A stretch of DNA of 64,000 nucleotides from the NCBI GenBank assembly GCA_964016885.1, contig OZ024743.1:145452001-145516000 (forward strand), read 5' to 3'. Source of the stretch: Eledone cirrhosa. Its lineage: Eukaryota. Each line of letters begins with the position of its first letter. Within the stretch, counting starts at the first letter, position 1. The notes under the pieces are model-generated. The model made no database searches and had not been told where the DNA came from. It saw nothing but the letters and a program-made list of their open reading frames with translations. The position numbers and the translations under genes are program-made. This document shows, one piece after another, positions 1,560-56,160 of this stretch.

Positions 1560-1592
1560 GTCAAAGTTCTTTCGTCACACCTCTTCAGTGAC
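1560..1592 (-). ncRNA. Minimal hammerhead-like motif
   Basis: Minus strand GTCA-CTGAAGA-GGTGTGAC-GAAA-GAAC-TT-TGAC. Stems II and III are very short. Confidence 0.4.
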
Positions 1593-2650: not shown

Positions 2651-2708
2651 CCGCCTGAAGAGGTAAGGCTATCATAATTGATAGTCCTCAGTGAAATATG
2701 TATAACGG
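2651..2708 (+). ncRNA. Minimal type-I hammerhead ribozyme (partly decayed)
   Basis: CCGC-CTGAAGA-...GGCTATCA taat TGATAGTC...-GAAA-TATGTA-TA-ACGG. Confidence 0.55.
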
Positions 2709-2881
2709 AGTTTTAAATAAACCTGAATCAACTGAATATGGCCTCCGATCTTTTATTAATATATAATGTTCCGTCTTATACCGTTTATGCAGGTCGTTGA
2801 GCGCTTCTTTTTATCTGCTTCACAACCGACAGACCATGGTGTAATCTGCACATCCCTGTTCTGTTAACCCCATACTCTAAA

Positions 2882-3012
<131 letters not shown>

Positions 3013-3897
3013 GAAATAATGCAAACATTATAAAGGACTGGAATAAATAATAATACATTTTTAAAAAACATCGATGGATAAGTAGTAAATAAGAGAAAGG
3101 AGGATAAAGAGGTAAAGAAGAAGGAAAAGAAAAGTACAGTCACAAGACTAGAGGACCTAATATTCCGCGGGCAGTGACCACTGCAAATTCTATGAGGCGG
3201 AAGCCATGGAGATTGTGAAATTAAAGCAAAACTTAGTGAACGTCAAGTCTGAGATTATCAGGGCTTGTAGTCACCACCGGAAATGCACCTTTTCCGCGCT
3301 TAACTTTCCCAACTAGGAGCTAGACGAGTGCATACGTACGTGCAGGCAACAGGAGTCTAGTCTGCCAGTGCAATGGTGTAGCCCAATGTTTTGTTGAGCA
3401 CACGAACCGGCCTTGGGCCCACTGTGCAAGTATAACTTTAGCACGTATAAGAACGAACACAAACATACATAAGAACATACCCATACACGCACACGCATAC
3501 ACACACACGCATACACACACATAACATCGTACACAATCAAAAGCTTATGCGTATCAGCACACGCACATACACTTACACGTATGTACACAAACACACCATA
3601 TAGGCATATACCCAGCTTGATCATACATCCTTGTTTTCGAAAAATTCTTTTTTCCATATTAAGACATTTGTGCTCTCTACATCGAACATAAGAGCAGTTT
3701 GATGGATTGTACATGAAATCTTTCTAGAGGTTCACTATTCCTTGTACTTTTCCTTTCCTTCTGCTTTACCTCCTTATCTTCCTTTCTCCTAGTTCCTATT
3801 TATCCATCTATTTTTTTTCAAATTGTGTTATTATTTTATTCTAGTCCTTTATTATCTTTGTATTATTTCTTTTACATATATATATGTATATATATAT

Positions 3898-20502: not shown

Positions 20503-20553
<51 letters not shown>

Positions 20554-20687
20554 GATACAGAAACGGAGCCATAGACTCTCGCCGTTCCCTGTAAATAATG
20601 TGCTCAAAGGAGAGGAAATCCTGAGCTCTTTAAAATACAATTATATATACAGTTCACTGTTCACCTGACAGTTGGCAGGTGAACAGT

Positions 20688-20737
20688 GAACTGTACTGAT
20701 GAAGGGTGATACCCAGAAACATTAGTGACTGCAGTTC
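20688..20737 (+). ncRNA. Minimal hammerhead with mutated cleavage triplet
   Basis: GAACTGTA-CTGATGA-aGGGTgatACCCa-GAAA-CATTAGTG-AC-TGCAGTTC. Overlaps the right arm of a 20-bp inverted repeat (20648-20695). Confidence 0.65.
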
Positions 20738-21355
20738 TGTTTACATGCCAACACAAGAGCAAGAATCAGGAGCTCATTCTATTGACATGGCTTTAAAAAT
20801 TAAGCTTGTTTGCATAATTGCAAACGAATCGAATATTATTATTAATATTCGAAAAACTCAGATTACATTTATTGTATTCAGCCATGTAGAGCGAACATTT
20901 TTTTTAAATTATATATATATATATATACACGTGTGTGTGTTGGCATGGATGTATATATATGTTTAAATATATATAGAGAGAGGGGGGACAACGAGAGAGG
21001 AATAATCCACAATCATTTTAGTAAAGTGCGTCAAGCTTGATACGTTATTCTTGTCGACAGCTTGCAGGAATGCAAGTCAAAGGTGTACTCCAGTAGATTA
21101 CCATACTGGTAGACAATGAAAGCTGCAGAGCATAAATAATTAAAACAAAAGGAAAACCAAGGTTGTTATTCAAATTCCATTGTTTTTGTATTAATTCAAA
21201 TAAGATTGGAAAAAATAACGCACACTATATAATCTTGATTGTCTCGGGGTTTGTTTATAATATATATATATATATATATCGTCTGCTTTGGAGAGAGGAA
21301 AGTTGAAGAATGCCGACAGACAAACAGGCAAACAGACAGGCAGACACACACACAT

Positions 21356-22321: not shown

Positions 22322-23573
22322 AAATATATATATATAAATATTAAATATATGTTTGTATGTATAGATATATGTTTTACTATTTTACTCAATTACCTGTTTC
22401 ACTCAACAGACTGCGACAAAAATGGGGCTCCACCATGACGAGATTCAGTTGATCATATTGACTAGTAGTTATGTTATCTTCTTGTTGAACCGCTAAGTTA
22501 TGGGTCATAAACAAACAGTAAACGTAAATACGCATACACATAAACACACTCACACACACATGCACAAATATATATATATATATGTGTGTGTGTGTGTTTG
22601 TATGTATATATACACATTTCCCTCCATTTCTGTATATGTGTTTGTGTGTGTGTATGGGTTGAAGTCGCCTCTTGTGCGCTCCTAGTAACATGAAATCCAG
22701 AACAGTTTGTTGCATAGTATTAGACTGATGCCCCCACCAGCCTAACCTGGTTGGATAGAAGGCTACAAATCCACCAGAACAATAATACCGACAAAATAAC
22801 AGCTATCAAGTAATAGCGCAGGCATTTAGAAATTCCAGGTTTGTGTTCGGCATCCTGCAAAACACCTAGGAATGAGTCTTTTTTGTTTGGTTTGTTATTG
22901 TTGCTGTTCATTTTTGCATTTTTCTTTGTTTTTCTGGTTTTGTTTTTAACATGTTTATAAGAAAGTCACTTCGATATCAAACTTGCTTTATAGGGAATGA
23001 TCTAGGTCGTTTAGAGGTCTTTAACCTGCGCTAAACACCACAACGCTCCAACCCTACTATATTTTCTTGGTGTTAGATATTTGGTCTTGGCTTGTCATGA
23101 GACCATACCTATACAGCGATGAGATGTTATGGAAATCTTATTAAACCTAAAATTTCTGCACGAGTATTACTTACCTTATTTTCCTGACTTTTCTTTTATC
23201 TTTATTCAAGCTCCTGCGGTGATGGAAAGACGACGACGTGTGCAAGACTTGACCGACTGGAAACAAGTAGTTAATGACTTCATTGGGTGTCCTATGTCAA
23301 ACACAATCTGTTCTAGAGGTATTCCTCGGGTAAAAGTAGACCATCATCATATGTATGTGTATATATATAAGTTTATCCCAGGTTTAATCGGGGGTAACCA
23401 CAGTAAGTAAGGAGTCAGAGTGGTTTCTTTTCTGCCTTTGTTACTCTAAATATAGTTTTTAAAGAATGACCTTTTCTTTAAATCCATTAACCAATGACCT
23501 CCACCCATCCTAATCACCACCCTCTCCTACCACCAGAAAATGTATAAATACCATCATATTACTTGGACAGTCT

Positions 23574-23622
23574 GCTTTCTGATGATTTCTCCCGAATTAA
23601 ACAGTTCTAGTCCTGTAGAAGC
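23574..23622 (+). ncRNA. Decayed hammerhead motif (GAAA>TAAA)
   Basis: GCTTT-CTGATGA-tTTCtcccGAAt-TAAA-CAGttctagtcCTG-TA-GAAGC, directly before a TA tract. Confidence 0.5.
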
Positions 23623-23623
23623 C

Positions 23624-23898
<275 letters not shown>

Positions 23899-23928
23899 AG
23901 ATCAAAAGATAGTTAAAGGAGTTCCATG

Positions 23929-23999
23929 TATTTTATTATGCGCATTTCAAAAACAAACATCATCATGCAATAATATTTGTGTTTTCATCAGATAAAACA
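23929..23999 (-). ncRNA. Type-I hammerhead ribozyme, intact core
   Basis: Reverse complement of 24116-24186. Confidence 0.8.
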
Positions 24000-24115
24000 G
24001 GAGAACATGATATGAAGGCTAAAAAACACTTGTGGATAGTGCAGTTTTAAAAGATAGTGTTGATTTAAAACTGCACTATCCACAAGTGTTTTTTAGCCTT
24101 CATATCATGTTCTCC

Positions 24116-24186
24116 TGTTTTATCTGATGAAAACACAAATATTATTGCATGATGATGTTTGTTTTTGAAATGCGCATAATAAAATA
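24116..24186 (+). ncRNA. Type-I hammerhead ribozyme, intact core
   Basis: TGTTTTAT-CTGATGA-long AU/GU stem II-GAAA-TGCGCA-TA-ATAAAATA. Confidence 0.8.
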
Positions 24187-24336
24187 CATGGAACTCCTTT
24201 AACCATCTTTTGATCTTATATTATGTATACTCCAGTCCTACAAACTGTAGAGTGCTTCTTATCCGATATCTGCATTGCTTTATTGTACTACAATAAAACT
24301 CACCTCCTACATTATAAATATATATATATATATATA

Positions 24337-24512
24337 ACGAAGGAAATGTGGTAAGGAACCAGGTGGACCATAACGCACCAAAGTAGTCAATACTTTGGGT
24401 AGTAGAGTGGGTAATAGGAACGAGTAGGACCCCGACGGCTGAGCTCAAGCCGTTTCAGTCCAGAATTAGCCGTCGAAACGGCTTGAGCTCAGCCGTCGGG
24501 GTCCTACTCGTT

Positions 24513-24517
<5 letters not shown>
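24337..24517. mobile_element. Head-to-head pair of family R2 3' fragments (HHR 3' half) in a TA tract
   Basis: Inverted repeat 24414-24517 containing GAAA-CGGCTTGAGCTCAGCCG-TC-GGGGTC. Same arrangement at 34991-35161. Confidence 0.75.
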
Positions 24518-27635: not shown

Positions 27636-27714
27636 AATATATTTTATTATATATATTTCGGAGATACTGCGCTGTTGCTGTTTTTTCAGTACGTCCTCAT
27701 CAGATAAAATATAT
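27636..27714 (-). ncRNA. Minimal type-I hammerhead ribozyme, intact core
   Basis: Minus strand TATATTTTAT-CTGATGA-GGACGTACTG...CAGTATCTCC-GAAA-TATATA-TA-ATAAAATATA. Homologous to 59964-60026. Confidence 0.85.
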
Positions 27715-35182: not shown

Positions 35183-36233
35183 TATTAATACAATAACAGA
35201 GAAAGCTTTACGCTAAACTCCGACTGGTAACCATCTCACTCAACAAACATTAGGTTATACGTTAGTATAAACCCAATTTAGTGTCTGGGGTGCCAACTAT
35301 ATGTATTTTGTGGAAAGCCAGTTGTATTATTTTATATGAGATATAATTAAAATTAAAATATATCTCTCTTTCCAAATAATTGTTTCATTATAAGTATTCT
35401 ACAAGTTGGGAGAATATTTCCAGTTTATGTAGAAGCCTAATATATTTTCATGTAAGAATACAATTAGGTGGGCACTTATAAATCGTTAGTGGAAGCCCAT
35501 TAAACTTTGATATAAGAAAAATTTCTTACCGCAGTTAATTTTCGTGTCTGCTAATTTGTCCCTTCACGCATCGAATGACCGCCAAATTTGAAATTCCAGC
35601 AGTCCTTTGACTGAGGAAGTATCATAGCGTCATGAAGCGGGAAAGGGAGACAATCACGAGTCACGAGAAAAGAAAAATAATATACACGTGGGTTAATTAG
35701 TTTTTTCAAAAACATTATCAATCCTTCGTGTTAAGAACTCAATTAATTTTTTAAAAATAAATGTATGCGTGTATTAATTACACACGCATATAGATATTTT
35801 CTTAGGCTAAAAACAGAGAAGTGATACCTGAATAACGAACAATATCTCACAACTGTAACAAATACGGAAAGTTACGCCTTAAAAGACATTTGGGAATGTA
35901 AATCTCTGGCCAAATTAAGAGTAAAATATTTAATAAACGCGGGTTAATTAGTTATTTCAAAACCAACATCAATTCCGCGTGTTAAGGACTCAATTTTAAA
36001 AAATAAATGTATGCATGTAATTATTTACACACGCATATAGATATTTTCTTAGGCTAAAAACAGAGAAGTGATAACCAAAAAACGAACAATATCTCATAAC
36101 AGTAAGAAATACGGAAGGTCATGTGTATAAGGTACCTGGAAATAAAAATCTCTGGCCAAATCAAGAGTAAAATATTAATACAATAACAGAGAAAGCTTTA
36201 CGCTAAATTCCAACTGGTAACCATCTCACTCAA

Positions 36234-36237: not shown

Positions 36238-36305
<68 letters not shown>

Positions 36306-36558
36306 CGATAAATTAACGGAGGCACAGGCTCTCGCTATTCCCTGTAAATAATGTGCTCAAAGGAGAAGAAATCCTGAGCTCTTTAAAATACAATAGGTTG
36401 AAAAGGTAACACACCAGAGAGAGATATATAGTGCGCTATCAATAAAACAGGGGAAAAACCACCAGTGTATGGAATCTATAACCTATGAAAGGCAGACTAT
36501 AGACACAATAATTAAAAATATAAATTAAAGCGTAAATAAATACCTCTATAACTATATA

Positions 36559-36652
36559 ACACACGTACAAATCCAAAGATACTAATCCAAAGATATGCTT
36601 CACCAGTAATTTGTTGAAAGAAATGGGTTAGCGTCGGTTCATCAGCGTGTGT
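36559..36652 (-). ncRNA. Hammerhead, R4 minus-arm copy (GAAA>GAAG)
   Basis: Reverse complement of the R4 HHR with one core substitution. Confidence 0.7.
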
Positions 36653-37525
36653 AAGGCTATACATTTCAGACAACACTAAGAGAATTTTAAAAGTGACTGT
36701 CCCGCTACACGTGGGAGAGAGAAGTCACAGCGTGTTTAAGGACAGTGAACCAGTGGCCTCTGAGGGATGAACTGCTAGAAAAAGCAGCCCAAAGCCACTC
36801 AGAGAAGTGTGCTCAACCAAACAGAGTTAGGAAAGACTGTTATTAGGAGCGAAATATCACGATAAATTAACGGAGGCATAGGCCCTCGCTATTCTCTGTA
36901 AATAATGTGCTCAAAGGAGAAAAAATCCTGAGCTCTTTAAAATACAATAGGTTGAAAAGGTAACACACCAGAGAGAGATATACAGTGCGCTATCAATAAA
37001 ACAGGGGAGAAAAACACCAGTGTATGGAATCTATAACCTATGAAAGGCAGACTATAGACACGATAATTAAAATTATTACGATAATTTATTTACGCTTTAA
37101 TTTATATTTTTAATTATCGTGTCTATAGTCTGCCTTTCATAGGTTATAGATTCCATACACTGGTGGTTTTTTCCCTGTTTTATTGATAGCGCACTGTATA
37201 TCTCTCTCTGGTGTGTTACCTTTTCAACCTATTGTATTTTAAAGAGCTCAGGATCTCTTCTCCTTTGAGCACATTATTTACAGGGAATAGCGAGGGCCTA
37301 TGCCTCCGTTAATTTATCGTGATATTTCACTCCTAATAACAGTCTTTCCTATCTCTGTTTGGTTGAGCACACTTCTCTGAGTGGCTTTGGGCTGCCCTTT
37401 CTAGCAGTTCGTCCCTCAGAGGCCATGGTTCATTGCCCTTAAACACGCTGTGACTTCTCTCTCCCACGTGTAGCGGGACAGTCACTTTTAAAATTCTCTT
37501 AGTGTTGTCTGAAATGTATAGCCTT

Positions 37526-37619
37526 ACACACGCTGATGAACCGAAGCTAACCCATTTCTTTCAACAAATTACTTGTGAAACATATCTTTGGTTTAGTATT
37601 TTTGGATTTGTACGTGTGT
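37526..37619 (+). ncRNA. Type-I hammerhead ribozyme, R4 unit 1
   Basis: ACACACG-CTGATGA-ACC...TGT-GAAA-CATATC...GATTTG-TA-CGTGTGT. Predicted cleavage after 37612. Confidence 0.8.
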
Positions 37620-38078
37620 TATATAGTTATAGAGGTATTTATTTACGCTTTAATTTATATTTTTAATTATCGTGTCTACAGTCTGCCTTTCATGAGTTAT
37701 AGATTCCATACACTGGTGGTTTTTTCCCTGTTTTATTGATAGCGCACTGTATATCTCTCTCTGGTGTGTTACCTTTTCAACCTATTGTATTTTAAAGAGC
37801 TCAGGATTTCTTCTCCTTTGAGCACATTATTTACAGAGAATAGCGAGGGCCTATGGCTCCGTTAATTTATCGTGATATTTCGCTCCTAATAACAGTCTTT
37901 CCTATCTCTGTTTGGTTGAGCACACTTCTCTGAGTGGCTTTGGGCTGCCCTTTCTAGCAGTTCGTCCCTCAGAGGCCATGGTTCACTGCCCTTAAACACG
38001 CTGTAACTTCTCTCTCCTATGTGTAGCTGGACAGTCACTTTTAAAATTCTCTTAGTGTTGTCTGAAATGTATAGCCTT

Positions 38079-38172
38079 ACACACGCTGATGAACCGACGC
38101 TAACCCATTTCTTTCAACAAATTACTGGTGAAACATATCTTTGGTTTAGTATCTTTGGATTTGTACGTGTGT
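38079..38172 (+). ncRNA. Type-I hammerhead ribozyme, R4 unit 2 (best paired)
   Basis: 7-bp stem I ACACACG/CGTGTGT, CTGATGA, stem II ACCG/TGGT, GAAA, stem III, GUA triplet. Predicted cleavage after 38165. Confidence 0.85.
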
Positions 38173-38630
38173 TATATAGTTATAGAGGTATTTATTTACG
38201 CTTTAATTTATATTTTTAATTATCGTGTCTACAGTCTGTCTTTCATGGGTTATAGATTCCATACACTGGTGGATATTTCCCTGTTTTATTGATAGCGCAC
38301 TGTATATCTCACTGGTGTGTTACCTTTTCAACATATTGTATTTTAAAGAGCTCAGGATTTCTTCTCCTTTGAGCACATTATTTACAGAGAATAGCGAAGG
38401 CCTATGCCTCCGTTAATTTATCGTGATATTTCGCTCCTAATAACAGTCTTTCCTAACTCTGTTTGGTTGAGCACACTTCTCTGAGTGGCTTTGGGCTGCC
38501 CTTTCTAGCAGTTTGACCCTCAGAGGCCACTGGTTCACTGCCCTTAAACACGCTGTGACTTCTCTCTCCCACGTGTAGCGGGACAGTCACTTTTAAAATT
38601 CTCTTAGTGTTGTCTGAAATGTATAGCCTT

Positions 38631-38723
38631 ACACACGCTGATGAACCGAAGCTAACCCATTTCTTCAACAAATTACTTGTGAAACATATCTTTGGTTTAG
38701 TATCTTTGGATTTGTACGTGTGT
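38631..38723 (+). ncRNA. Type-I hammerhead ribozyme, R4 unit 3
   Basis: Same layout as unit 1. Predicted cleavage after 38716. Confidence 0.8.
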
Positions 38724-38888
38724 TATATAGTTATAGAGGTATTTATTTATGCTTTAATTTATATTTTTAATTATCGTGTCTACAGTCTGCCTTTCATGGG
38801 TTATAGATTCCATACACTGGTGGGTTTTTCCCCTGTTTTATTGATAGCGCACTGTATATCTCTCTCTGGTGTGTTACCTTTTCAACAT

Positions 38889-38974
<86 letters not shown>

Positions 38975-39199
38975 TATATAAAATTGAAAAAATGGAGAAT
39001 TACATGGTCAACAGTACAAACAAGGAGGTTTATTTACAGTCTAACAATTGTTTCACTGACGTAAACCTCTTGTTGAGTCATACAACGTGGTACGCTAAAA
39101 TTATCCATGATAAGAAGTATTCACAACCTCTATTTGGATTACCTATAACGTAATTATCCTCTTTATAAATATATATATATATAACGTAATTATCCTCTT

Positions 39200-40940: not shown

Positions 40941-42313
40941 AAAATATATATATATATATATATATTGACGAAACAAGTCAATTGCATGAACTCATAATCC
41001 TTTATTTACCGCTTTATTTGTATGAAATTGTAAATAAGACAATGAATATTGAAAGCGACTACGGAAAAAGGGGGAAATAACTCACCGAAGCCGATAGTAA
41101 ATAGACCGTTTTGGGGCCCCAGGGACCACATTTTTTAAGTTAGAGATCTGAAACCTCGTCTATTTGCTTCCTTGGCACTTTTTACATAGGTGTGTAAATT
41201 TTCATGTCAGTCCGACCACGTCTACTACCATTTAACAGTGCACAACTGAATTTCAACCACCACCCATTTCACAAATATATATTGACGATTTATATTGTGT
41301 ATTCATTTTTATTTGTTCATCTCGCAGTACATGCTTGCGTTACGCATGGTATTTGACGAACATGGAAAGTTTCCTGGCTCTTTGGGTAGTGCATTTGTTG
41401 GCTGGCACTGAGATCATTATTACTATTATAACAGTATAGTTATGGTCATTGCTGTTGTTGATTGAGGTGATATTGTTATGGTTGCAGCTGTAAGAGGTGT
41501 ACGAGAATTTTCTCAACTGTTCTTGAGGCGTGAGTCGTGTTGGGGGTGGTGGCCGGGAGATTAATTCTGGGGGTGGGGTGCTGGGAGTGGTAGTGGGTAG
41601 GGTGACATTGTAGCTTAGAGGAGTTGCTTCTCCGATGTTATTTTCTGTCTATTTTGAGTTTGAGGTGTAAATGGGATGCTAGTATTCTTTTCTTTTTCCT
41701 CTTTGTGGGCTCCATACACATACATAAATATATTCACACGTGCATATTTATACACACGCATGTATATACACACAGATATATATATACCCACACATTAGAC
41801 ACTGAGAAGGGAGGTAGGTAGCAGTCAGTGACAGTATTCTAAAAATAGATTGGGGATTTACTGGTGTGAATGTGTGGGGAAGTGGTTGTGAATGTGATGG
41901 TGGGAGAGAGAAGTGATCTTTCAACTGTCCATTTTCCTTTCAAAATCTGAAATTTAGCCACAATCGACCAAAATGTAAAAAAAGAAAATTGTATTGGGGA
42001 AATATTTAAAAATATATATGCACCTTTCACATCTTCAACCACAGAGATGATTGCATAATAATTAGACGGATTTTTGATTAAACAGAACTTATCCCCCGAA
42101 ATAAACAGTGTGTTTTCCGATCTATGTCTGTTTCTCTTCTTCAAATAATATGTAAACAGCGATTGTAATGGGTAAATATATTTTAAAAAACTTTGAAAAA
42201 AATCGCTCCCCCGCCCCAAGGAAAATTTCGACCTTGAAACGGTAAACAACGTTCAGGTCAAAAGTTCAAAAGCAGCCACTGTAGATCTCACCACAACTAC
42301 GACTACTACAGAC

Positions 42314-44200
42314 ATGTCTGTCGACCATTCCACTGAATGTGATGGCAAAACACAAAAGTTACTATCACAACCACTCCCTTCAGTGTTAGTAGCAGTATCA
42401 TCTCAAAACGACATCACTACCACTACCAACGCCACCACCACCCCCACCACAACAACTCAGAACAACAACGACAATAACACCGACAGCTTCAATGTAAACA
42501 CGGATGGCGGTGGCAACAGCAACAACAAACAAAACAACAACAACACCAACAACAACAGGAAGAATGACAACACCAACAAGAGCAACAGAGGCACCACCTT
42601 TTCTGCAGCAGCAGCAAAAACAAAGCACTTATTGAATATTGATATTAGCGATAAAGACGAACAGTTGGCCCAGGCGTGAAGGTTAATTAAACGGGAGAAG
42701 TCCTGGGCAAACCTGACCATCCTGGACGGGGCAATAGCGGCCATGCAAAGGAGGACGATGTACTTTCGATGCATTTCAGTGCACACACGCAAAGTGGAAC
42801 TTGCCAGTCAAGCAGAGGTCGAGGCTGCTTTGGAGTGCATCGGATGTGACATAGAGTATAAAGCAAGGCCCAAACAATTCGGTACCATTTCGGTACTGTT
42901 CAAAACCGAGGCCCTTGCTATTAAGCACTCGGTGACCCCCTGCAAAACGGAACACATTATCATTCACCCGTCCTACATGGGAAAAAGGACAGTAAATGTC
43001 TGCATTTCCAAGTTCCCACCAGGAATGAACATATGGTGGCTCCTGGGATGCGCAATCGAGGAGGGGACAGACACTACCCCCCCTGGATATCAAAAGGACA
43101 GAGAGAGAAGACTGGTCCGGAATGGATTTGGAGATTCTTCTCCAAATGAAACCGCAGGACATGAACAACATCCCGGATTTTGCCCGCCTGCAGGACGGGA
43201 CAACAATCCAACTAATCACTGGGGCAAGAAGGCCGCATTGCTTCGTCTGCGGGGAATCAACGCATCTGCAAGCCTTCTGCTCTCGGCGCAAAAATGCAGG
43301 GGGTCGCAAACCTTCTTTGTTGCCAACGCCAGTGTCAGCACGGAAAGCTGCACCACCCCCACCAAAAACAACACCAACAAAGACACGGACACCAACATCA
43401 AAAATAGCCGGACCACCACCAACACAGAAACCAATCCAAGGGGAAAACGAGGAAAGTTCTCCCACTCCCCCTACCCCCCAATTATACACATAGACAAAAC
43501 AATAAACGCACACACAGACACAGAGACACTCACAGCCACAGACCCTTTGTCTTCCAACAGCGAATATGAAGGAAAACCCAAAAGTGCAAAAAAAAACAGA
43601 GAAAACTCATCCCCAAAAAAGCCCCAACAAAACACAAAAACATACACAACAAAAAATACAGACACCACTAACGCAAACATTTCCCCAATAACATCAGCAC
43701 TAACAGCAACATCGACACCACCCCCACAATCCCCGAAACGCAAACAACCTAAACAAACACAAGTACAAATAAACACATAAATACCTGAAATTGCAGACAC
43801 CACACCTACAACAAACACAGACATATCCGAAACAACACCACCAAAACCATCACCACCAGTCACCAAAACGAAAACAAATAAAACCACACCAACAAAATGT
43901 TAAAAACTTCGTGCTTGTCAGAAGGGCCAACGATAAACTGATGGCCCTCTTAGCACGAAGCGAGGACATTCAAACAGAGGGGGAGATCTTTGAAATGAGC
44001 ACATTTTGCGTGCCAGAAGATTTGCTTCTGGTCCGAATGTCATTCGATTCCTTCAAAGAAATTCGGGAGAGCTTTCCTCAAGACGTGGGAACCCCGAATA
44101 TGAAACCCACATCGAGACTTTTAAAGGGGTTCCAAAAGAAACCCCACCAACCATAGAGGTCGAACCACCCGGCCTTCACAAGACCCCGGGAGGTAAGTAA
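42314..44200 (+). pseudogene. Tx1 element A ORF1 (RRM-like region, CCHC zinc knuckle, Pro/Thr-rich tail), disrupted
   Basis: FGTISVLFKTE and RPHCFVCGESTHLQAFC. Collinear with element B ORF1. Stops and frameshifts present. Confidence 0.8.
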
Positions 44201-44229
44201 ACCTTCCCTCTCTCTTTTAGCTTGACAGC

Positions 44230-47200
44230 ATGGCCATATTAAGAGTAGGAAGTTTAAATGTTCGCGGCCTGGGGTGACCCTGGAGCAGGGTCGCCTACTC
44301 AACGACCTCAGGTCGCTGGAAGTGGATGTGATTGCCGTCAGCGAGACCAGAATTTTCCGACAAGCGCGCACTAGCCTCCATTTTCGACGACTATCAGATC
44401 TTCGCATCTGTTAGCAGGCCGGGAATGGGAGGTGGGGTGGAAGTGCTGTTTAGGAAAGGACTGGATCTCGAGGTAAGGTCGATCTTCCGGGACCCGGACG
44501 GTAAGTTGGTGGTCTTGGATGTGAGCAGTAGCGAATGTGGTGCCTTTAGACTGCTGGCCGTCTACACCCCTACAGGGACCGGGCGACCGAACTTCTTTAT
44601 GCGCCTGGAGACCTTTCTGGGTACGTCTCGCCCTTTACTGTTAGCGGGGGACTGGAATGGCATCTTAGACGCACGCTGGGATTGTGTGGGAGTAGCCGAT
44701 AGGAGCCGGGGGTGTAAAAGCCTCAGGCACCTACTCAGCCAGTTCCAACTGTCTGACAGGTATCGACTAGATTTACCCAATATGCCAGTATGGACATGGA
44801 CCAACCGCATGGGGTCATCTAGATCGTATATAGACAGAATCTTCATTAGGAAAATAGATAGAAAGAGTGTAGGCTGCCCACTTTTTAAAACGGTCGCCTA
44901 TTCAGATCACAAATTTGTGATCTTTATGGTCAACCTAGATAAAACGCGTAGCTAGGGACCGAGTTACTGGAAGCTGAACATGTCATTTCCGGCACGTAAG
45001 GCTTACAGGGACCGAGTCAACAATTTAGTTAAGCAAAATTGACAGGGGGGATCATCAACAACAGATGGGGGGGGGGGGGCCTCCGAAAAGAGAGATTAGA
45101 AAATCTTCGATGGAGTTCAGCAAAGAACTAGCGTTAGAGAAAAATAGAAAGGAGGAAGAGCTGGTAGATAAGTTAGACGAGGCTATTTGTAGTGGCATTG
45201 CAACTGACGTGCTAGCGGCGAGAATGGCATTAGACCATTTCTTCAATGCGAAACACGAAGGCTGCATTGTCAGAGCTAAGGCGCGTGCGTTGAGAAACGA
45301 GGGAACCAAAGCTGTTCGATGGGCCCGCGTGGCGGAGGCGCAGCGTGGTAATAAAACCACAATTCGGTCCTTTGCGGACCGAGACGGACACGAGATAAGC
45401 GATTCCAAGCGGATTTGCTCGGTTGTTTGGGGAGAGTGGCGAGTCAGAGAGAGTAACGGATTTCAGTCCCTACATTGACAGCTTGCCAGCGCATCTCGAC
45501 AGCCGACGCTGAGCGCTGCGAAAGGCCGATTACTTCAGCCGAAATTTAGGACGCCCTTGTCGGCTGCATGAGGCGCAAGTCACCCGGTTTGGATGGTCTG
45601 CCCTACGAGCTTTACGTAAATATGCCAGACTTGTTCTCCGATCTCCTCGAAGCACTCTACTGCAACTGGCAGCAGAATGGGAGTATTCCCAGTTCTGTGA
45701 GCAGGGGAGTGGTGACGCTGATAAGGAAAGACGAGAACAAGAGGGATACATTAGATAACTTCAGGCCCATAACTCTGCTGAACACAGAGTTTAAGATTTT
45801 GGCCAGGGTGTTAGCGAAGAGGTTGGCGCTTGTCGTCGGGGATTTGGTTGAGGAGGCGCAAACTTGCGCAATCCCAACCAGGTCCATACACGACAACCTC
45901 CACCTAATAGAGAGGGTAGGGTGTAAACCTGGCTTCGGTGGGGCTCTGATCAATTTAGATCAATCGAAAGCATTCGATAGGGTCGACCATCGGTACCTGG
46001 AGGCTGTCCTCAAGGCGGCTGGCTTCGGCCCCGTCTTCAGAAGCTGGATCGCTGCAATGCACAGCGGCACCTGCTCGGTGGTCAAAATTAATGGCCACTT
46101 CTCGGAACCGTTTCAGGTCTCCCGATCGGTCCGTCAAGGGTGCCCTCTCTCCTCCCTTCTGTACGTATTGACTCTCGAGCCTTTACTGCGGAAGCTGGAG
46201 CTGTTGCAGGGCATCCCGCTCGAACCGGGACGCGGAAAAGCCGTGTCGACTTATGCGGACGACATCACCGTGATGGTGTCGGACACCTCAGAAATCGAGG
46301 TGGTCGGTACCTTATTGGAGGAATATGAAAGGTTGACGGGAGCAAAACTTAACCCGGAAAAGTCAGTAGGCTTGCAACTCGGCACCTGGAGAGGCAAGTC
46401 CATGCCGTCCAACAGCGTCGTTAGGCGCTGGACAGACCGGTAAAGTTGCTAGGGGTTTGGTTCGGGCCAGACCTCCAGGTGAATAAGTATTGGGACGAGG
46501 TGACGGGCAGGGTAGTCAGTTTCACCCAGAAATGCGCTGGGATGAAGCTATCACTGAAAGGTCGGGCGGAGGTGGCGAACGCGTACATCGCGTGCGTCTT
46601 CTACTACCGTCTAACTGTCGTCCCTTGCCCCCGTTCTCGCCTCGCCATCTTGGAGCGGCTCCTCTTCAAATTCTTGTGGAGGGGTCAGGTTCCGCTGGTG
46701 AGGCGGTCCATCTGCTGCCAGCACCCTCTACGTGGAGGGCTGGGCATGCCGTGGCTAATGATGCGCAGGCACGCGCTGAGGCTGCGGCATCTCCAGATAT
46801 TCTGCCTAAACGGTGAACAGGTGTGGTCGCCGTTTGTCAGACGGGCCTTTCCGCAGCTCGTTTCTTTGACTGAGTTGCAGTTCTGGGTCAAGAAGAGACC
46901 GAGACTGGGTGACTGGCATCTGGAATGTTGCCAGGCACTCACTGCCCTCTACCAGGCGGGAAATGCGGTCAGTGGAACTTCCACTCTCGAGTTCTATAGA
47001 GGATTAGTGGTGGGCAAGTGCGACGACGCACTCGGAGAGGCTCTGGGAATCAACGAAGTCGAACTAACCAGTCTGTACCGGAGGACTTTCGAGTCGGGGA
47101 CGATGGATAATTTCCAAAAATCCCTCGCTTGGCAGTGCTACCGGGGGGCACTGCCGGTATGAGATAAACTCTACAGGCACGGAAGTGCTGTCAGCCGGGA

Positions 47201-47618
47201 CCTGCTCGTGATGCGCGCAGAGCGACGAAACCGTTCTGCACGCACTCGTCCAGTGTCCGTGCATTACTGACTTGTGGAGTTATGTTGAACAGCTGTTGTC
47301 GCGTGTAGAACGGATCTGGCTATCGGCCGAGTCCATAGTGAAGATCGACCCGCCGCCTTCTTTTGGCCAGGAAGGGCAGGCAATTTTCCTCTGTCTGGTG
47401 GCAGTAGCGAAAGAGGTTGTATGGTGGACGAGGTTGAAAGGACTGAAGACAGACACTTTTCTCTTCGGCCAATCCCTCATCAACTTTTTCAAGTTTCACT
47501 TGGAGGGAAGGTTAGGATGGAGAGAGAAGGGCTGCCCCCCAGTACATTTGCTGAAAGGTGGGTGAATGTGGCGAGAATGGCCCGTGTGAGTAGGCCTACT
47601 CTGGTCATGCGGCTGTAG
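44230..47618 (+). pseudogene. Tx1 element A ORF2 (APE endonuclease, RT, zinc finger), disrupted
   Basis: MAILRVGSLNVRGL, SET, GDWN, SDH; KSPGLDG, FRPITLLN, LDQSKAFD, RQGCPLS, YADD, GGLGMP. Confidence 0.93.
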
Positions 47619-48127
47619 GTAAATTTGAAGGTAAATTTGAAGAGGAGAGGGGTGCCCTTCCAGGGTGCTCTCGAAGCGTCGGGTCGTTCAGGACTGGTGG
47701 GGTACCTGAGCGAACCCTAGGTGGTCATCCCCCCTATTGGGAAATTTTTTCTTGTTGTAATTTTATTGTTACTTTGTTATTGTTACTTTGTTTATTCATA
47801 TTGTTTACTCGATTTTTTTGTAAAACCCCACTGTCCCAGTCTTTTGTTTTGTCCCCTATATGTTGGCCCTTGTGGCCAATAAATGAAATCATTATTATTA
47901 TTATTATTATTATTATTGGCGACCTACGTAGTAAATCGTATCATCGTGAGCTCCGCAAAGGTTTGTTATTTCCGTTTGTTAAAAATTGCCATTTATGGAA
48001 AATTTTTATTGTTAACTATATATAAGCGCACATACATTGTTTTCCGAAAAGGACACCCAAAAAGATTGAGGCCTTGTGCCCAAAATTTAAACTTTTATGA
48101 TTATCAAAAAATTTCTTTGAAAAAGAA

Positions 48128-50134
48128 ATGGCTAATTCACCACTGCACCAAGCAGCTGAAAGCCTTTCTCACAAATTAACACCTCACACCGACACCACCA
48201 TTGTAAATGTTACTACGTCTGCCAACACACACAATTTAAGCACTAGCAATATTTTAAATTTGTCTCAGGCAGACATTCATTTCCCGCCATTACCAATGAC
48301 TGCAGGTGTTAAAGCCGCCACCACCACTACCGCCACCGCGACAACCACCACCCCCACTACCACCGCGACAACAGAAACAAAAGGAAAAAATAAATCAACT
48401 CGTGATGTCGAAATATTTTCAACCAAAATGGACTCTCCCAAACCGAACTTCACTGACGTCACCACCACCACAACTGAAACTAAAATTAATAATAACAAAA
48501 ATAACGATAGCAACAACAACAACAATGACATTAAAAAAAACCCCCTGAGTTTTGCCAGAGTAGCAAAACAGTGCGAAGCATTTACGGTAACTGAGGAGGA
48601 ATTAGAAAATGCCAAACAAATGGTAAAGAAAGATGGGTACAGGGTCAGCCTCACCCCCCACCCCCACCCACCCACCCCACCCCACCACCCACCTAATAAA
48701 ATGGAGCATCGGCGCCTATGCACCGTGTCGTATCGAACAATAAATGTAAAATCGCGCCGAGTGGAACGGGCATCCGAGTCCCAAATCCAAAAAGCTTTGG
48801 GACATGTGTGGGCAAGAAAAACCCACATCAGACGTGGGCAGAAGTATGGAACCGTGGATGTGTTCTTTGAAACACCAGAGGAGGCTAGAGAACACTCCAT
48901 GGCCCCATTAAGAAGTGACGACTTCACACTCGTCCCAAGCTATTGTGGTCAGAGACTCGTAAAGATCAGGGTGACCCACGTTCCACCGGCCATCGAAATT
49001 CCCTTGCTAATAGCGGCCGTCCTCGCCGGCATCGAAGCCAACACAAAGATAATAGCAATAGCAAAAGAAAAGCAGGAGAACTGGTCCGGATCTGGGATGG
49101 AGCTCCTGATCCAAGCGGACCAAAAAAGCATTGAGGAGATCCCAGAAGTAATAGACCTCACTGATGGCAGCCACCTCACCGTAATTGTCGAGAGCAGAAG
49201 GCCTAGGTGTGTCGTTTGTGGTGAAGGAACCCACCTAAGGGCTTTCTGCCCTTAGGCTAAAAGGTTGAGGCCACCTCTCCTACCCACCCCAGTGACACAA
49301 CCATCAACACCCTCAGTAGCAGAGATGGCAGCAACAACTGTAGCAGCAACAACAGAAGCAACTAAAACAGCAACAACCCCAGCAACAGTAGCAAAACCAA
49401 CACCACCACCACCAGCAAAACCAACACCACTACCACCCAACGCTTCAGAACTAGCACCAACGCCTACACCATCCACCACGCCACAACCAAAACTAACGCC
49501 TGTGGAGGATTTTCCATTCCCCGGCCTATCACAACTGGAGACAGATTGTGACGACGAGGAGTGGGAAACGATATCCGGAAAAAAAAAAGAAACCAAAAAA
49601 GAAAAAATTCTCTTCCTTCCCCCTCCAAAAACAAAATACAGAGGGAAACAAATAAATTAACAAACAAAAAAGTTAGGACAGATATGCCACCATCCACACC
49701 AGCATCACCAACCCCATCAACCCAAACACCAACAACATCACCATCATTAACCCCAACACCACCATCACCTACACCACAAAAGTCACCAAAATGCGAAACA
49801 GAAACGAACCCAAACAAAACAAAACAACCAAAACGATACACACTACACAGCATTAAATTTGAACAACAAGCAATTATTACACTACATCCAGCACAACACC
49901 AGCATCACAGAAAAAGACTACACAACAACCCAAAAATTCACACCACCTCCACACATACAAATCGCTCGCATCACACAGAAAACGTACATGACACTAAAAC
50001 AAAAATTCCCCAAAGACATCGGAGACTTCCGACAAGCACTCTCCAGGAGGATTTATAAGGACATCCTTCCTGAGGAGGCCACAAGCAGTGAAAAGGATGG
50101 AAAAACCGTCCTTCCCCTACGAGAAGTAAGGTAA
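48128..50134 (+). pseudogene. Tx1 element B ORF1, disrupted
   Basis: YGTVDVFFETPEEA and RPRCVVCGEGTHLRAFC. Internal stop at ~49255; Pro/Thr-rich C-terminus. Confidence 0.82.
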
Positions 50135-50168
50135 GTGGACTTTCCCATCTTTTCCACTCCTTTTCAAC

Positions 50169-53100
50169 ATGACCTAACTCAGAATAGGCAGCATAAATGC
50201 GCGTGGCTTGGGGTCGTCATGGAAGCAGGGTCACCTGCTCAACGACCTCAGGTCACTAAACATAGATGTAGTGGCCATAAGCGAGACCAGAATCTCCGAA
50301 GCACGGGCCTTCGCACCGATATTCGGCGGCTACGATGTGTACGCATCTACCAGTCGTCCGGGATCGAGGGGAGGAGTTGCTGTGCTTTTTCGGAGAGGTT
50401 TGGATCTTGCCATACGGGCCATCTTCCTGGACCCAGAAGGTAAGTTGGTGGTGCTGGACGTGACCAGCAGAGACGGGCAAGCTTTCAGGTTAGTGGCCGT
50501 CTATGCCCCGACAGGAGCAGGGCGGCCTGATTTCTTCCGGCGTCTGGAGACCTTTCTTGGAACGTCCCGCTCTTTAGTGTTAGTGGGCGACTGGAACGGG
50601 ATCTTAGATGCACGCTGGGATTGTGTGGGATTAGTGGATAGGGAAGGAGGGTGCAAGAGTCTCACCAACCTGCTCAGGCGTTTTGAACTGTCTGACAGGT
50701 ACCGAATTGATTTCTCGAATGTACCAATGTGGACTTGGACAAAGCGCATAGGGTCATCCGATCATATTTAGATAGAGTATTTTGTAGGGAAATAGATAGG
50801 TCTAGCATAGGCTGTCCACAATTCAAGATAGTCAGCTACACGGACCACAAATTCGTGATCTGTGTGCTTGACTTAGATAGGCTTCATAGACGAGGACCCG
50901 GCTACTGGAAGCTAAACGCGTCCTTACCAGCGCGCAAGGCCTACAAAGACCGGATTAGCGAACTAGTTAAACTGGCGTTGACGGGGGCCATCGTCAACAA
51001 CAAGTGGTGGTTTGCTCTGAAAAGAGCAATTAGAATAGAGTCAATTAGGTTTAGTAAGGCTTTAGCATTAGAGAAAAATAGAGCAGAGGGAGAATTAGTT
51101 AGAAAATTAGACGAGGCGCTTAGCAAAGGCATCGCGACCGACGTACTTGCGGCGAAATTGGCCCTTGACCAATTCTTCAATGCAAAGCACGAAGGCTGCG
51201 TTGTCAGAGCTAGGGGAGGGGACGAAAGCCGTTCAATGGGCCCGAGTGGCGGAGGCTCGTCGGGGCAACAAAGCCACGATCCGGTCTTTGGTAGACCACG
51301 ACGGGCGCATGCTACTCGATCCCGGGCAAATGTGTGAAGCTTTTCAGCGACACTTCGCTCAACTGTTCGGGGGCAGTGGCGGGCCGGATCGATGGATGGA
51401 CTTTAGTGTCTACCTCGACGGACTGCCGCGGCTTTCGGCCACTGAGGCGGAGTGTTGCGAAAAGCCGATAACAACCGCTGAAGTACGGGAGGCAATGACT
51501 GGCTGCACAAGGGGTAAATCGCCTGGTTTGGATGGTCTGCCCTATGAACTTTATGTACAAATGCCAGACTTGTTCGGAGCCCTCTTGGCGGACGTCTACT
51601 GCAACTGGCAACAGAACGGGAGAATTCCCAGCTATGTGAGCCGAGGAGCAGTGGCGCTGCTGAGAAAGGATCCGAACAAGGGGGATAACATAGATAATTT
51701 TAGGCCCATAACTCTGCTAAACACAGAGTTCAAGATTTTGGCCAAGGTGCTAGCAAAGAGGTTGGCGCTTGTCGTTAGTGGTCTGGTGGGAGAGGCACAG
51801 ACATGTGCTATTCCCGACAGATCCATCCACGACAACCTCCACCTCATGCGAAACATCGTAGAGAGGGTAGCTAGGGAACCTGGCACGGGTGGGTCTTTGA
51901 TCAATTTAGATCAGTCGAAAGCCTTCGATAGGGTCGACCATCGTTACCTAGCGGCAGTCCAGAGGGCGGCTGGCTTTGGGCCCGTCTTCAGAGGCTGGAT
52001 CGCTGCCATGCACAGCGACATCTGCTCTGTAGTGAGAGTGAACGATCACCTTTCGGAACCGTTCAACATCATGCGCTCGGTCCGCCAAGGATGTCCCCTC
52101 TCGTCCCTATTGTACGTATTGACTCTCGTGCCATTACTGCACAAACTGGAGACGTTGAGGGGGGTCCCGTACGAACTAGGATGCGTAAGATCCGTGTCAG
52201 CATATGCGGACGATGTCACCGTAGTGGTGTCGAACGCCAAACACATCGAGGCGATCGGCACTACACTAAGAGAATACGAAGCGGTGACAGGAGCAATGAT
52301 CAACTAGGAAAAGTCAGTGGGCCTGCAGCTCGGCACCTGGAGAGGGAGGTCCATGCCGTCCAACAGCGTCGTCGGGCGCTGGACGGACGGACCGGTTATA
52401 TTGCTAGGGGTCTGGTTCGGTCCAGACCTCCAGACGGACAAAAGCTGGGACGAGGTGACGAGCAGGGTGGCTTCTCTCACCCAGAAATGGGCCGAGAGGA
52501 AGCTATCCCTGAAAGGTCGAGCGGAGGTGGCTAACGCGTACATCGCGTCGTACCTTGTCCTAAGCCCCGCCTGACTGCGCTGGAGCGTTTGCTCTTTCGC
52601 TTCTTGTGGAAGGGACGCGCTCCGATGGTCAGGCGGTCCATCTGCTGTCAACACCCGCTACGTGGAGGGCTGGGCATGCCGTTGCTGATGATGCGCAGAC
52701 ACGCGCTCAGGCTACGACATCTCCACCTCTTCCTCGACGGTGATCAGGTGTGGTCGCCGTTTGCTAGACAGGTTTTTCCCCAGCTCGTCTCCTTGACGGA
52801 GCTGCAGTCCTGGGTCAAGCAAAGACCGAGAGGGAGCGCTTGGAGACTGGAATGTCTTCAGGCGCTCACAGCCCTCGACCAATCGGGCAATGTGATCGGT
52901 GGAAACTCCACCTTGGCGTTCTATAGGGGATTAGTGGAGGGGAAGAGCGACGACGTACTTGGAGAAACTCTAGGCGTCGACGAAAATCAACTAGCCAATC
53001 TCTTCGGAAGGACTTTCGGGCCGGGGCCTATGGATAACTTCCAGAAATCCCTGGCCTTGCAGTGCTACCGGGGAGCTTTGCCAGTTCGGGATAAACTCTA

Positions 53101-53545
53101 CAGGCATGGAGGTGCCGTCAGCCGGGCATGTCCGAGATGCGCACAGGGCGACGAAACCGTCCTGCATGCACTCGTCCAGTGTCCGAGCATTGTTGACTTG
53201 TGGGTTTATGTCGAACACCTGCTGTCACGTGTAGGACGGATCCAGCTATCAGCTGAGTCCATCGTGAGGATTGCCCCGCCCTCTTCCTTTAGCCGGGAAG
53301 GGCAGGCAGTTTTTATCTGTCTGGTGGCCATGGCGAAAGAGATAGTGTGGTGGACACGTTTGAAAGGGCTGAAGACGAGCACTTACCTCTTCGGTGATGC
53401 CCTGATTAACTTTTTCAAATTTCATTTGAAAAGGAAAATCGGGGTAGAGAGGGAAGTGCTCTCTTCCCACCATTTTGTTGAAAGATGGGTGAGAGAAGCA
53501 AGTATGGCCCGAATGAATGGGCCTTCTCTGAGTATGTGTCTGTAA
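50169..53545 (+). pseudogene. Tx1 element B ORF2 (APE, RT, CCHC), disrupted
   Basis: VVAISETR, GDWN, TDH; PGLDG, LDQSKAFD, RQGCPLS, YADD; CPRC...ETVLHALVQC. Confidence 0.93.
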
Positions 53546-53787
53546 ATTAAAGGTGGAAAACTGGGAGAGGGCATTTGCCCTGGTGGTCAGGGTCACTGTG
53601 GTCTTTTAATGGGCTTTCTCCACAAATGTCCCTCGGAAGTCTCCCCCCTATTGGGGAATTTTTCTTTGTTATTTTATTACATCCTCTGTTTTTTTACACG
53701 CAGAAATGCCCATTTGTACCGTCCTGTATTGTCCTGTACTGTCCTTAATGTCTACTTTATGTAAACCTTTGTGGTTAATAAAGAAAA

Positions 53788-53836
<49 letters not shown>

Positions 53837-53839
<3 letters not shown>

Positions 53840-55351
53840 AATAATAATGATTTCTTTATTGGCCACAAGGGCTGACATCAAGAAAAACATTACAGACGGC
53901 ACAGGACGATACGATGTAGGTTTTGTTCGTGTAAAGATTTTTATTATTTATATAAGAAAAGAAAAAGAAAATTACATAGAAATATATATATATAAACAAT
54001 AAAAATGAAAATTGGAACAATGAAAATTTCCCCAATAGGGGGAAACCTCCGAAGATTACTCGTGGCGAAAACCACACAAAAGACCACGGCTACCCTGACC
54101 ACCAGAGCAAGCGCCCTCTCTCAATTTTTCCATTTCTCAAACTACAGGCGTGTATTCAGAGCGGTCCCGTTCACTCGGACCATTCTCGCTACATTCACCC
54201 ACCTTTAACAAACTTGCTAGAAGGCAGCACTTGCCTCTCCACCCTGATTTTCCTCTTCAAGTGAAACTTGAAAAAGTTAATTAGGGATTCGCCGAAGAGG
54301 AAAGTGTCTGTCTTTAACCCTTTCAACCTTGTCCACCACACAATCTCTTTCGCCATGGCCACCAGGCAGATGAAAACCGAAAGCCCTTCCTCCTCAAAGG
54401 AAGACGGCGAGACCATCTGCACAATAGACTCAGTCGATAACCGGATCCTACACGCGACAGCAACTGTTCGACATAGCTCAGCAATGCTCGGGCACTGAAC
54501 GAGTGCGCGCATCTCGGACAGGCTCGGCTGACGGCACTTCCGTGTCTGTAGAGCTTATCTCGAACCGGCAACGCTCCTCGGTAGCACTGCCAGGCCAGGG
54601 ATTTTTGGAAGTTATCCATAGGCGCTGGGCTGAAAGTTCTCCGGAAGCGAGCAAACAGCTGATCTTCTTCGACGCCCAGGATCTCTCCGAGAACGTCGTC
54701 GTTCTCCCCCTCCACTAGTCCTCTATAGAACGCCGAGGTGGATGTTCTACCAATACTGGTGCCCAGCTGGTGAGCGCCTGGAGACATTCCACTTTCCAAG
54801 CGCTATCCCTCGGTCTTTTCCTGACCCAGGACTGCAGCTCAGTCAAGGAGACGAGCTGTGGGAAAACGTGCCTGGCGAACGGCGACCACACCTGTTCACC
54901 GTCAAGGAAGCACCAGAGATGTCGCAGCCTCAGCGCATGTTTGCGCATCATCAGCCATGGCATGCCCAGCCCTCCACGCAACGGGTGTTGACAGCAGATG
55001 GATCGTCTGACCATGGGAGCACGTCCTTTCCACAAAAAGCGGAAGAGGAGGCGCTCCATTTTGGTGAGAGTTGGGCCGGGGCAAGGGACGACGGTGAGGC
55101 GGTAGCAGATGACGGATGCGATGTACTCATTCGCCACCTCCGCCCGGCCTTTCAGGGACAGCTTCCTCTCGGCCCGTTTCTGGGTGAGGGAGGCCACCTT
55201 GCTCGTCACCTCACTCCAGTTTTTCTCCATCTGGAGGTCCGGTCCGAACCAGACCCCGAGCAATTTAACCGGTCCGTCCATCCAACGTCCCACGACGCTG
55301 TCGGACGGCATGGACTTTCCTCTCCAGGTGCCGAGCTGCAAGCCCACCGAC
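53837..55351 (-). mobile_element. Tx1-clade LINE, element C, 5'-truncated, tail-to-tail with B
   Basis: Minus-strand ORFs SVGLQLGTWRGKSMPS...FKFHLKRKIR. 3' UTR and (ATT)n tail at 53837-53848. Confidence 0.92.
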
Positions 55352-56160
55352 ATTCTATGCATGTATGCTGCAATGTACCAGGCCTCTTCTTCCGAGCGTT
55401 GGTCGAGTGCTTCCCGCGCTCGAGCAGATACCACAAGATTTTCAACCCCCAGACGGAGAGGTTCTCCTTCTCCACCGCACCTAACATGGCAGACTACATG
55501 GCCAAAACCAACGCGGCGAAAATGGGGAACCTCGACCGTCAATCGTAGGCGGGAGGGCTCCTTGCAGACAACAACCCGGCCCATGCGGCGGCCGCTACGC
55601 CCGCGGAAGACGATACAATCCAACGCCGGGCGGAAATGAGTGGCGGAGGGGACCACCGTCTCGGCAGAACAACACCCAGAGAATCGGGAGAGGGCCGTGG
55701 CAGATCAAGGGCCAGGCGTCCGAAATGAACAATATAACGACAGAACGTGCAACTGCAGAGCGGGCACACAGTGCCCTCTGCAGGAAAGATGCCTAACGAA
55801 TGGCCTGGTATATAAATGTGTGGTTAGCACGCACAATATACATTGGCGTACATCGGCGCAACATCCACGACCTTTAAATCGCGGATGTATAACCACACAA
55901 ACTCTTTCAAGGACCAGAGCAAGAGGCACTCTACCAGGCTGGCGGACCTGGTGTGGGACTTGAAAGACAAAGGGTACCCCGTATGCCCTCAACTGGAGTA
56001 TTGTTCGGCACGGGAATGCATATTCGGCTGGAAATAGAAAGTGTAGGCTATGCCTATCCGAGGCCATGGAGATTGTCAAACTGAAGGATGATGCGGTCAA
56101 CCTGAAATCAGAAATAATCATGACGTGCAGACATCAGAGAAGGTGTACACTCTCCGCATG
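55352..56160 (+). pseudogene. Naiad-type Penelope-like element 3' coding fragment (linker + GIY-YIG endonuclease), frameshifted; 3' UTR may extend to ~56730
   Basis: FFRALVECFP..YHKIFN..FSFSTAPNM; CNCR..CPL..CL..LVYKC; YIGATSTTFKSRMYNHTNSF..HSTRLADLVWDLK; CRLCLSE..KSEIIMTCRH. Confidence 0.88.

Follow-up and report, generated by a model that had tools for sequence, protein, structure and literature searches.

A tandem array in a (TA)n microsatellite of Eledone cirrhosa, at 36304-38893 of the 64,000-nt stretch of contig OZ024743.1 analysed here (the window), raises the question of how it came to be there. Its units carry hammerhead ribozyme motifs and had been read, from the letters alone, as an active source of viroid-like circular RNA; alternatively, they could record the insertion of a mobile element, in which case one may ask what set its ends. 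The account that best fits the data is insertion of a non-coding hammerhead family whose ends were likely set by a borrowed reverse transcriptase (RT)/GIY-YIG endonuclease of a Penelope-like element (PLE). The element is a non-LTR retrozyme behaving as a non-autonomous PLE, a kind already known.

Results

Organisation of the insertion

Units are numbered from the predicted hammerhead cut, u1 being the base after it (e.g. 37613), and 37613-38165 is taken as the reference unit. The target microsatellite is split into a left half (36238-36304) and a right half (38893-38980), between which lie two arms of opposite orientation; with (TA)n on both sides, any target-site duplication would be masked. 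The direct, plus-strand arm (37084-38893; 1.81 kb, 3.3 units) runs from u25 to u176-178; the inverted, minus-strand arm (36304-37076; 777 nt, 1.4 units) runs from u45 to u553 and then from u1 to about u263-266. They meet 5' to 5' at 37077-37083, where around 7 bases match neither arm. The arms are 95.5-97.2% identical to the reference unit and the unit spacings are 553, 553 and 551 nt, which confirms the 3.3 plus and 1.4 minus units first described in this (TA)n tract. The array had also been called non-coding, and this is borne out by the absence of any stop-to-stop frame of 150 aa or more in 36304-38893. The GC content of the unit is 0.39, and no Rfam match at the gathering threshold occurs within the window. 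A diverged direct repeat of ~260 bp lies just to the left of the insertion, at window ~35680-36200.

The 3' end of the minus arm is at the more distal of two sites in the unit, ~u266 (u263-266), and that of the plus arm is at the proximal one, ~u178 (u176-178), 88 nt away. The minus arm therefore carries the 88-nt "tail" that lies between these sites (36304-36387, minus strand), in which two hairpins are predicted, and the plus arm ends without it.

Three type I hammerhead motifs with intact cores are present on the plus strand, at 37526-37619, 38079-38172 and 38631-38723, and they place the predicted GUA cuts after 37612, 38165 and 38716, exactly as had been proposed. Stem II of the second has four pairs; in the first and third a C.U mismatch (37574 and 38678) leaves two contiguous pairs at its base. 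The type I motif of the minus arm (36652-36559) is likely impaired, an A15.1>G change at 36598 giving GAAG instead of GAAA in the core. The claim of a hammerhead with a 7-bp stem I in every unit is confirmed for the three plus motifs and needs correcting for the minus-arm core. Stem III is paired, as claimed, but it consists of only 5 pairs and a U.U mismatch and encloses a loop of 18 nt; this loop contains a 14-nt duplication that is missing from relatives of 539-543 nt.

The array belongs to a dispersed family

DNA searches of the 3.0-Gb genome gave 1,500-3,400 first-look candidates. Two family motifs had 2253 and 2094 exact genome matches against 0 and 0 for reversed controls, numbers that count sites rather than insertions and miss mutated copies; the array is therefore not a chance occurrence. 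The locus is a single member of a dispersed family of some thousands of copies. Three subfamilies, up to ~15% apart, can be distinguished: subfamily A, which includes this locus, has a unit of 553 or 539 nt, subfamily B has a unit of 542 nt (88-93%), and subfamily C is at 83-90%. The hammerhead core is kept in all three. The window itself contains a separate, tail-only insertion of subfamily B (20548-20641, minus strand; u172-u266, 89%) that ends in (TA)n.

Copies are dispersed and short rather than arrayed, most being of less than two units, and the flanks of those examined are TA, unique sequence or other repeats. No coding frame adjoins any of the copies examined, and the searches with subfamilies B and C reached no ORF (frames were checked for C, and architecture only for B). 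At one locus (L275:300-560; L numbers are our own locus designations) an internally deleted 87-nt segment of about u103-199 is present three times in the distal arm, which suggests template re-entry or slippage. That it might be a repeated tail was considered and rejected, as ~u103-199 is a different segment.

Fixed 3' ends and a pairing rule

The ends of family copies were compared in 95 places picked by similarity, this locus included, after two segmental duplicates and repeat fetches had been dropped. In 143 of the 170 arms at these places the 3' end falls at u168-184 or u256-270, and TA lies directly beyond 127 of the 143 canonical ends; the 5' ends, by contrast with these fixed sites, are scattered across the unit. 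The same end sites are used in subfamilies A, B and C. Counted by eye, TA adjoins ~38 of the first 100 genome-wide matches to the proximal site and ~62 of the first 100 to the distal site. Each of the three subfamilies has predicted hairpins located at the two sites as well as in the interval that separates them, the fold of the tail having a z of -1.5. Both sites have 3-5 nt of TA-like sequence.

Head-to-head insertions make up 66 of the 95 places. Both ends are canonical in 50 and at least one is non-canonical in the other 16. It is clear that the two arms of an insertion do not choose their sites independently (p 2e-12): 48 of the 50 canonical pairs combine one distal and one proximal end, with one pair of two proximal and one of two distal ends. 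A second sample, of 41 places (66 arms) taken in order of position on contig 1 and without overlap with the first, contains 29 head-to-head insertions, of which 19 have mixed sites, one has the same site twice and nine have a non-canonical end. Both samples combined, the sites are mixed in 67 of 70 two-armed canonical insertions, a rule that the present locus obeys. Where the two arms meet, an overlap of 1-7 nt is frequent. Twin priming on a single linear RNA predicts that the 5' end of one arm should adjoin the 3' end of its partner, which is not what the arm coordinates show, and it was rejected on that ground.

A probable Penelope-like mechanism

Several properties found here are those by which PLE insertions are recognised: an inverted, 5'-truncated arm, two defined 3' ends with a one-sided tail, and a (TA)n target. 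The inverted arm, the microsatellite target and a tail lying between what would be two internal RT starts are together the basis for regarding the element as a non-autonomous PLE, an assignment that the sequence-only reading had missed along with the fixed, paired 3' ends. It has no RT and GIY-YIG frame of its own. A borrowed Penelope-type RT/GIY-YIG endonuclease would cut both strands of the microsatellite; RT would then start on the element RNA at two internal sites, one per target strand, and the two cDNAs would extend from the nicked strands, stop at variable points and be fused head to head, in many cases through microhomology of 1-7 nt.

The genome has ~10,600 GIY-YIG candidates and RT plus GIY-YIG frames of 938 and 636 aa whose RT scores are slightly below the Pfam cut-off, and it contains coding PLEs that combine (TA)n flanks with inverted arms and a tail on one side. 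When the unit was compared by blastn with 50 GIY-YIG loci out of the ~10,600 candidates, no coding PLE with this unit was found; the only similarity was AT-rich (u22-66), apart from a nested unit fragment at L095 terminated by a TA tract. With the unit shared by none of these 50 loci, the helper is a postulated PLE.

One coding PLE family (L121:2809-5622, minus strand; also L122, L130 and L132) has an open 938-aa RT and GIY-YIG frame with a CxxxxCxxC motif ahead of the nuclease. Its 3' region is long and CA-rich, its tail is one-sided and ~61 nt in length, and it is a candidate source of protein for in vitro studies. In the PLE families of L104, L121, L124 and L132 a (G/A)GCCACTTTT-like motif lies either 5' of the hammerhead or close to the end. 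It is also present in the unit at u420-432 (e.g. window 38032-38044), as GTCACTTTT or GCCACTTTT.

Conservation and predicted folding of the hammerhead

The full core is retained in 99 of the 114 hammerhead copies, and the sole recurrent change in the core region is at position 7, a tolerant position. Between subfamilies A and B there are no fixed changes in the 39 columns of the core and stems, as against 8 of 31 in loop II (p 0.0008) and 16 of 459 in the rest of the unit (p 0.27). The core is thus more conserved than loop II and not detectably more than the remainder of the unit, so that selective conservation, which had been put forward as a check on the ribozyme, is neutral. Within the stems 94% of cells are paired, with five one-sided changes and no compensatory double change in 18 pairs. 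In this alignment four compact copies are misregistered in stem III; with one member of every pair invariant, shuffling provides no informative control.

The hammerhead is not the predicted minimum-energy fold of any copy that was folded. At this locus the cost of adopting it is predicted to be 15.1, 8.3 and 12.8 kcal/mol for hammerheads 1, 2 and 3, compared with medians of 5.1-6.7 kcal/mol for 91 other copies, of which 0, 14 and 2, respectively, are as costly; these values come from nearest-neighbour models, which ignore magnesium and tertiary contacts.

Circle or uncut tandem as template

Of 143 arms, at least 87 cross the cut site and 2 terminate no more than 5 nt away from it, approximately the level expected of scatter. 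In the position-ordered sample 31 of 66 arms cross the site and none stops there. The 5' ends of 11 arms seemed at first to be stacked at u1, but this proved to be a BLAST edge artefact, nearly all of these arms extending upstream. The template is therefore not the linear cut monomer; it should be either a re-ligated circle or an uncut multimer.

Units within a locus diverge by 2.9% in the same arm and 3.0% in opposite arms, as against 4.2% between loci; the within-locus value is about twice the rate of rare changes (1.4%). These values point to one template lineage per insertion. Alleles at a frequency of 10% or more are concordant within loci in 58 cases and mixed in 21, though recurrent alleles as a whole are less cleanly shared, being concordant in 39 and mixed in 43 within one arm, 25 and 31 across arms, and 64 and 74 overall.

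For the family as a whole, a monomer cut by the hammerhead and re-ligated into a circle is given slightly better than an even chance of being the template, and an uncut tandem transcript a little less than one. In favour of the circle are the closeness of units within a locus, the sharing of common markers, and a core that has no fixed change between subfamilies A and B beside a variable loop II. Weighing against it are the lack of significantly greater conservation of core and stems than of the rest of the unit, the absence of double compensatory changes, the non-minimal hammerhead fold and the scarcity of arms that span two cut sites. The stricter form of the second reading, in which the RNA copied in PLE-driven insertion is always linear and uncut, whether tandem or read-through, with the hammerhead active only at a later stage or only with protein and tandems renewed through template jumps or local duplication, is a reasonable possibility that we do not prefer. 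It is consistent with the PLE PAc, which uses unprocessed RNA, has a hammerhead that needs protein and yields RNA-seq without ends at the cut (PMC11167929). It would also accommodate the failure of the hammerhead to be the minimum fold in any folded copy, the local triplication of 87 nt at L275, and the rarity of arms of more than ~715 nt (2 of 66 in the position-ordered sample, in which again only 2 of 66 span two cut sites). Against it, the core has been retained over three subfamilies at up to ~15% divergence, and the common subfamily markers are mostly present in all units of a locus, for which a monomer bottleneck is needed.

This copy as a source of RNA

The plus arm is one of just 3 of 143 arms that exceed two units. 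Its sequence, together with that of the minus arm, forms a mosaic of variants private to the locus: u170C marks four units, both of the minus arm and two of the plus arm; u416G marks three that are not adjacent; and u67C and u82G mark the last three, with no private variant common to all. Elsewhere in the genome the motif containing u170C occurs in only 6 places and that containing u416G in only 1. The simplest reading of this pattern of variants is that mutations arising after insertion have been spread by conversion or unequal exchange; alternatively, the units could have been copied from a mixed pool of templates, which is not favoured as the simplest reading. The locus is an unusually long, decayed copy whose units have probably exchanged sequence since insertion.

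The hammerhead core motif occurs in a single polarity of the unit only. Circular monomers are predicted to fold into branched structures with 55-62% of bases paired and z of -1.5, -2.3 and -3.3 (40 shuffles). Hammerhead viroids and viroid-like satellite RNAs have unit-length spacing of cut sites, as does the array. Unlike hammerhead viroids, the family is genome-encoded, has the motif in one polarity and a weak, branched fold, and spreads via DNA copies, and the description of the locus as viroid-like, for which the one polarity, the branching, the 55-62% pairing and the z of -1.5 and -2.3 are all unfavourable, is not upheld.

That the locus is nonetheless an active source of 553- and 551-nt circular RNAs, its units recording one pass of RT round one circle, is unlikely. 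In its favour the three plus-strand cores are intact, arms of the family pass the cut site, a copy with three cut sites is rare (two are spanned in 2 of 66 arms) and formally able to release monomers, and retrozymes of coral, mussel and axolotl produce circles (PMC7229834). However, the private variants form a non-nested mosaic rather than the identity expected from a single pass round a circle, and the predicted fold costs of its hammerheads (15.1, 8.3 and 12.8 kcal/mol) exceed the medians of 5.1-6.7 kcal/mol. Efficient release of 553/551-nt monomers from this locus is doubtful. Taking the private mosaic, the costly folds and the branched circular monomer together, this locus is by prediction a weak candidate for an active source, and L028, a compact relative with four 540-nt units and a predicted cost of 2.6 kcal/mol, would be a better one. 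The sequence-only reading had judged the present locus the best copy to test, a view that is not supported: in predicted folding its hammerheads rank near the bottom of the 94 scored, and its units are a locus-private mosaic.

It is very improbable that the family is a satellite, or a SINE-like repeat mobilised by LINEs with an L1-type twin-priming inversion and an incidental hammerhead: LINEs with APE and RT do lie within the window and this locus shows signs of local homogenisation, but copies are dispersed, short and not in arrays, they lack poly(A) and a single 3' end, the full core is kept in most of them (99/114), and the pairing of two sites already disfavours such an origin.

Other elements in the window

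Several further hammerheads lie in the window. Another family is represented at 23899-24223 by a palindromic insertion within (TA)n; stem III of its two type I hammerheads (23999-23929, minus; 24116-24186, plus) is the palindrome TGCGCA, and the motif is also in L138. Type I hammerheads with a long AT-rich stem I and a palindromic or near-palindromic stem III are next to (TA)n at 27637-27714 (minus) and 59964-60026 (plus), with a relative in L131. At 20645-20740, abutting the tail-only subfamily B piece, a small hairpin precedes a hammerhead-like motif whose cut triplet is GAC; L101 has an intact version with GUC. At 23570-23625 lies the decayed hammerhead of yet another family, which has a paired stem III and runs into (TA)n; intact relatives are in L130 and L138. 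A short element with a strong internal palindrome occupies (TA)n at 24330-24516; since sequence resembling it borders a number of unrelated loci (L130, L137 and L158), it is probably another TA-targeting non-autonomous element. Finally, window ~42000-56000 is a GC-rich tandem of LINE copies with a period of ~5.9 kb, CAA/CAC-rich sequence before each copy, and APE endonuclease, RT and zf-RVT frames in pieces.

Discussion

The array fits the definition of a non-LTR retrozyme under which it was first placed: it has three consecutive plus-strand cores, it is non-coding with a GC content of 0.39, and it belongs to a dispersed multicopy family. Its likeness to the metazoan non-LTR retrozymes of Cervera and de la Pena (2020, PMC7229834) and Li, Clavereau and Pollet (2026, bioRxiv 10.64898/2026.07.22.740005), extends to non-coding tandem units with a type I hammerhead and 39% GC, thousands of copies, size variants due to small indels, and the presence of PLEs in the genome. 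The unit of 539-553 nt is above the 150-450 bp given in PMC7229834 and within the 51-972 bp given in bioRxiv 10.64898/2026.07.22.740005. It is unlike them in that most copies here have less than two units and in that cleavage and circles are predictions here, and fixed paired ends and inverted arms are not described in the parts considered of either source. According to these two studies, retrozyme circles occur in coral, mussel and axolotl with PLEs as the likely helper (PMC7229834), and animal retrozymes are tied to PLE pLTRs, a PLE origin being argued from co-occurrence and pLTR similarity; cleavage in vitro was seen in only 1 of 9 Xenopus dimers (bioRxiv 10.64898/2026.07.22.740005).

The ends of the insertion resemble those of EN+ PLEs. 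According to Craig et al. (2021, PMC8557442), insertions of PLEs are partial tandems in which one copy is inverted and truncated at its 5' end; they favour (TA)n and carry a tail of 30-40 bp, in many cases at a single end. How inverted arms and one-sided tails form is named there as an open question. Frangieh et al. (2024, PMC11167929) report that the PLE protein cuts and extends both target strands and that the RNA has two internal starts downstream of the hammerhead, the tail being the interval between them. In common with Poseidon PAc of Anolis (PMC11167929) and Neptune/Naiad (PMC8557442), the family has partial tandems, an inverted 5'-truncated arm, a one-end tail, a (TA)n target and two end sites downstream of the hammerhead cut. 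It differs from them in having no RT/GIY-YIG frame, a tail of 88 nt rather than 30-40, a near-strict rule of one site per arm (67/70), short TA-like sequence at the end sites, and a paired stem III in place of the minimal palindromic form. Microhomology may contribute to initiation, given the 3-5 nt of TA-like sequence at the end sites, unlike the non-homologous start of PAc. MRC1 and other Chlamys PLEs of Chlamydomonas are likewise non-autonomous, with multicopy head-to-tail insertions; unlike the present family, they have no canonical hammerheads, and an autonomous relative has been identified for them (PMC8557442).

That the tail is often at only one end is already in print, and the pairing rule is an addition to it. 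No paper stating the rule or describing the family was found among open-licence papers and bioRxiv. PAc in vitro showed no difference between strands in start site and no need for hammerhead cleavage, results which do not predict strict pairing and weaken the case for a circle step (PMC11167929). The same study predicts that the PLE protein acts as a dimer. We tentatively suggest that an asymmetric PLE RT dimer on one hammerhead-made circle might start at two structured internal sites 88 nt apart, one for each target strand, in the manner of telomerase. If this were so, every two-armed insertion would receive exactly one tail, the circle model of retrozymes would be joined to the two-site initiation of PLEs, and both inverted pLTRs and one-sided tails would be explained.

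What the family contributes is evidence from insertion ends: a retrozyme with the two-start signature of PLEs, in which the two arms use different starts (67/70). With the origin of inverted arms and tails named as open (PMC8557442) and no strand preference seen in vitro (PMC11167929), the pairing rule becomes a sharp prediction for the existing in vitro assay, for which an RNA of 540 nt would be a convenient substrate.
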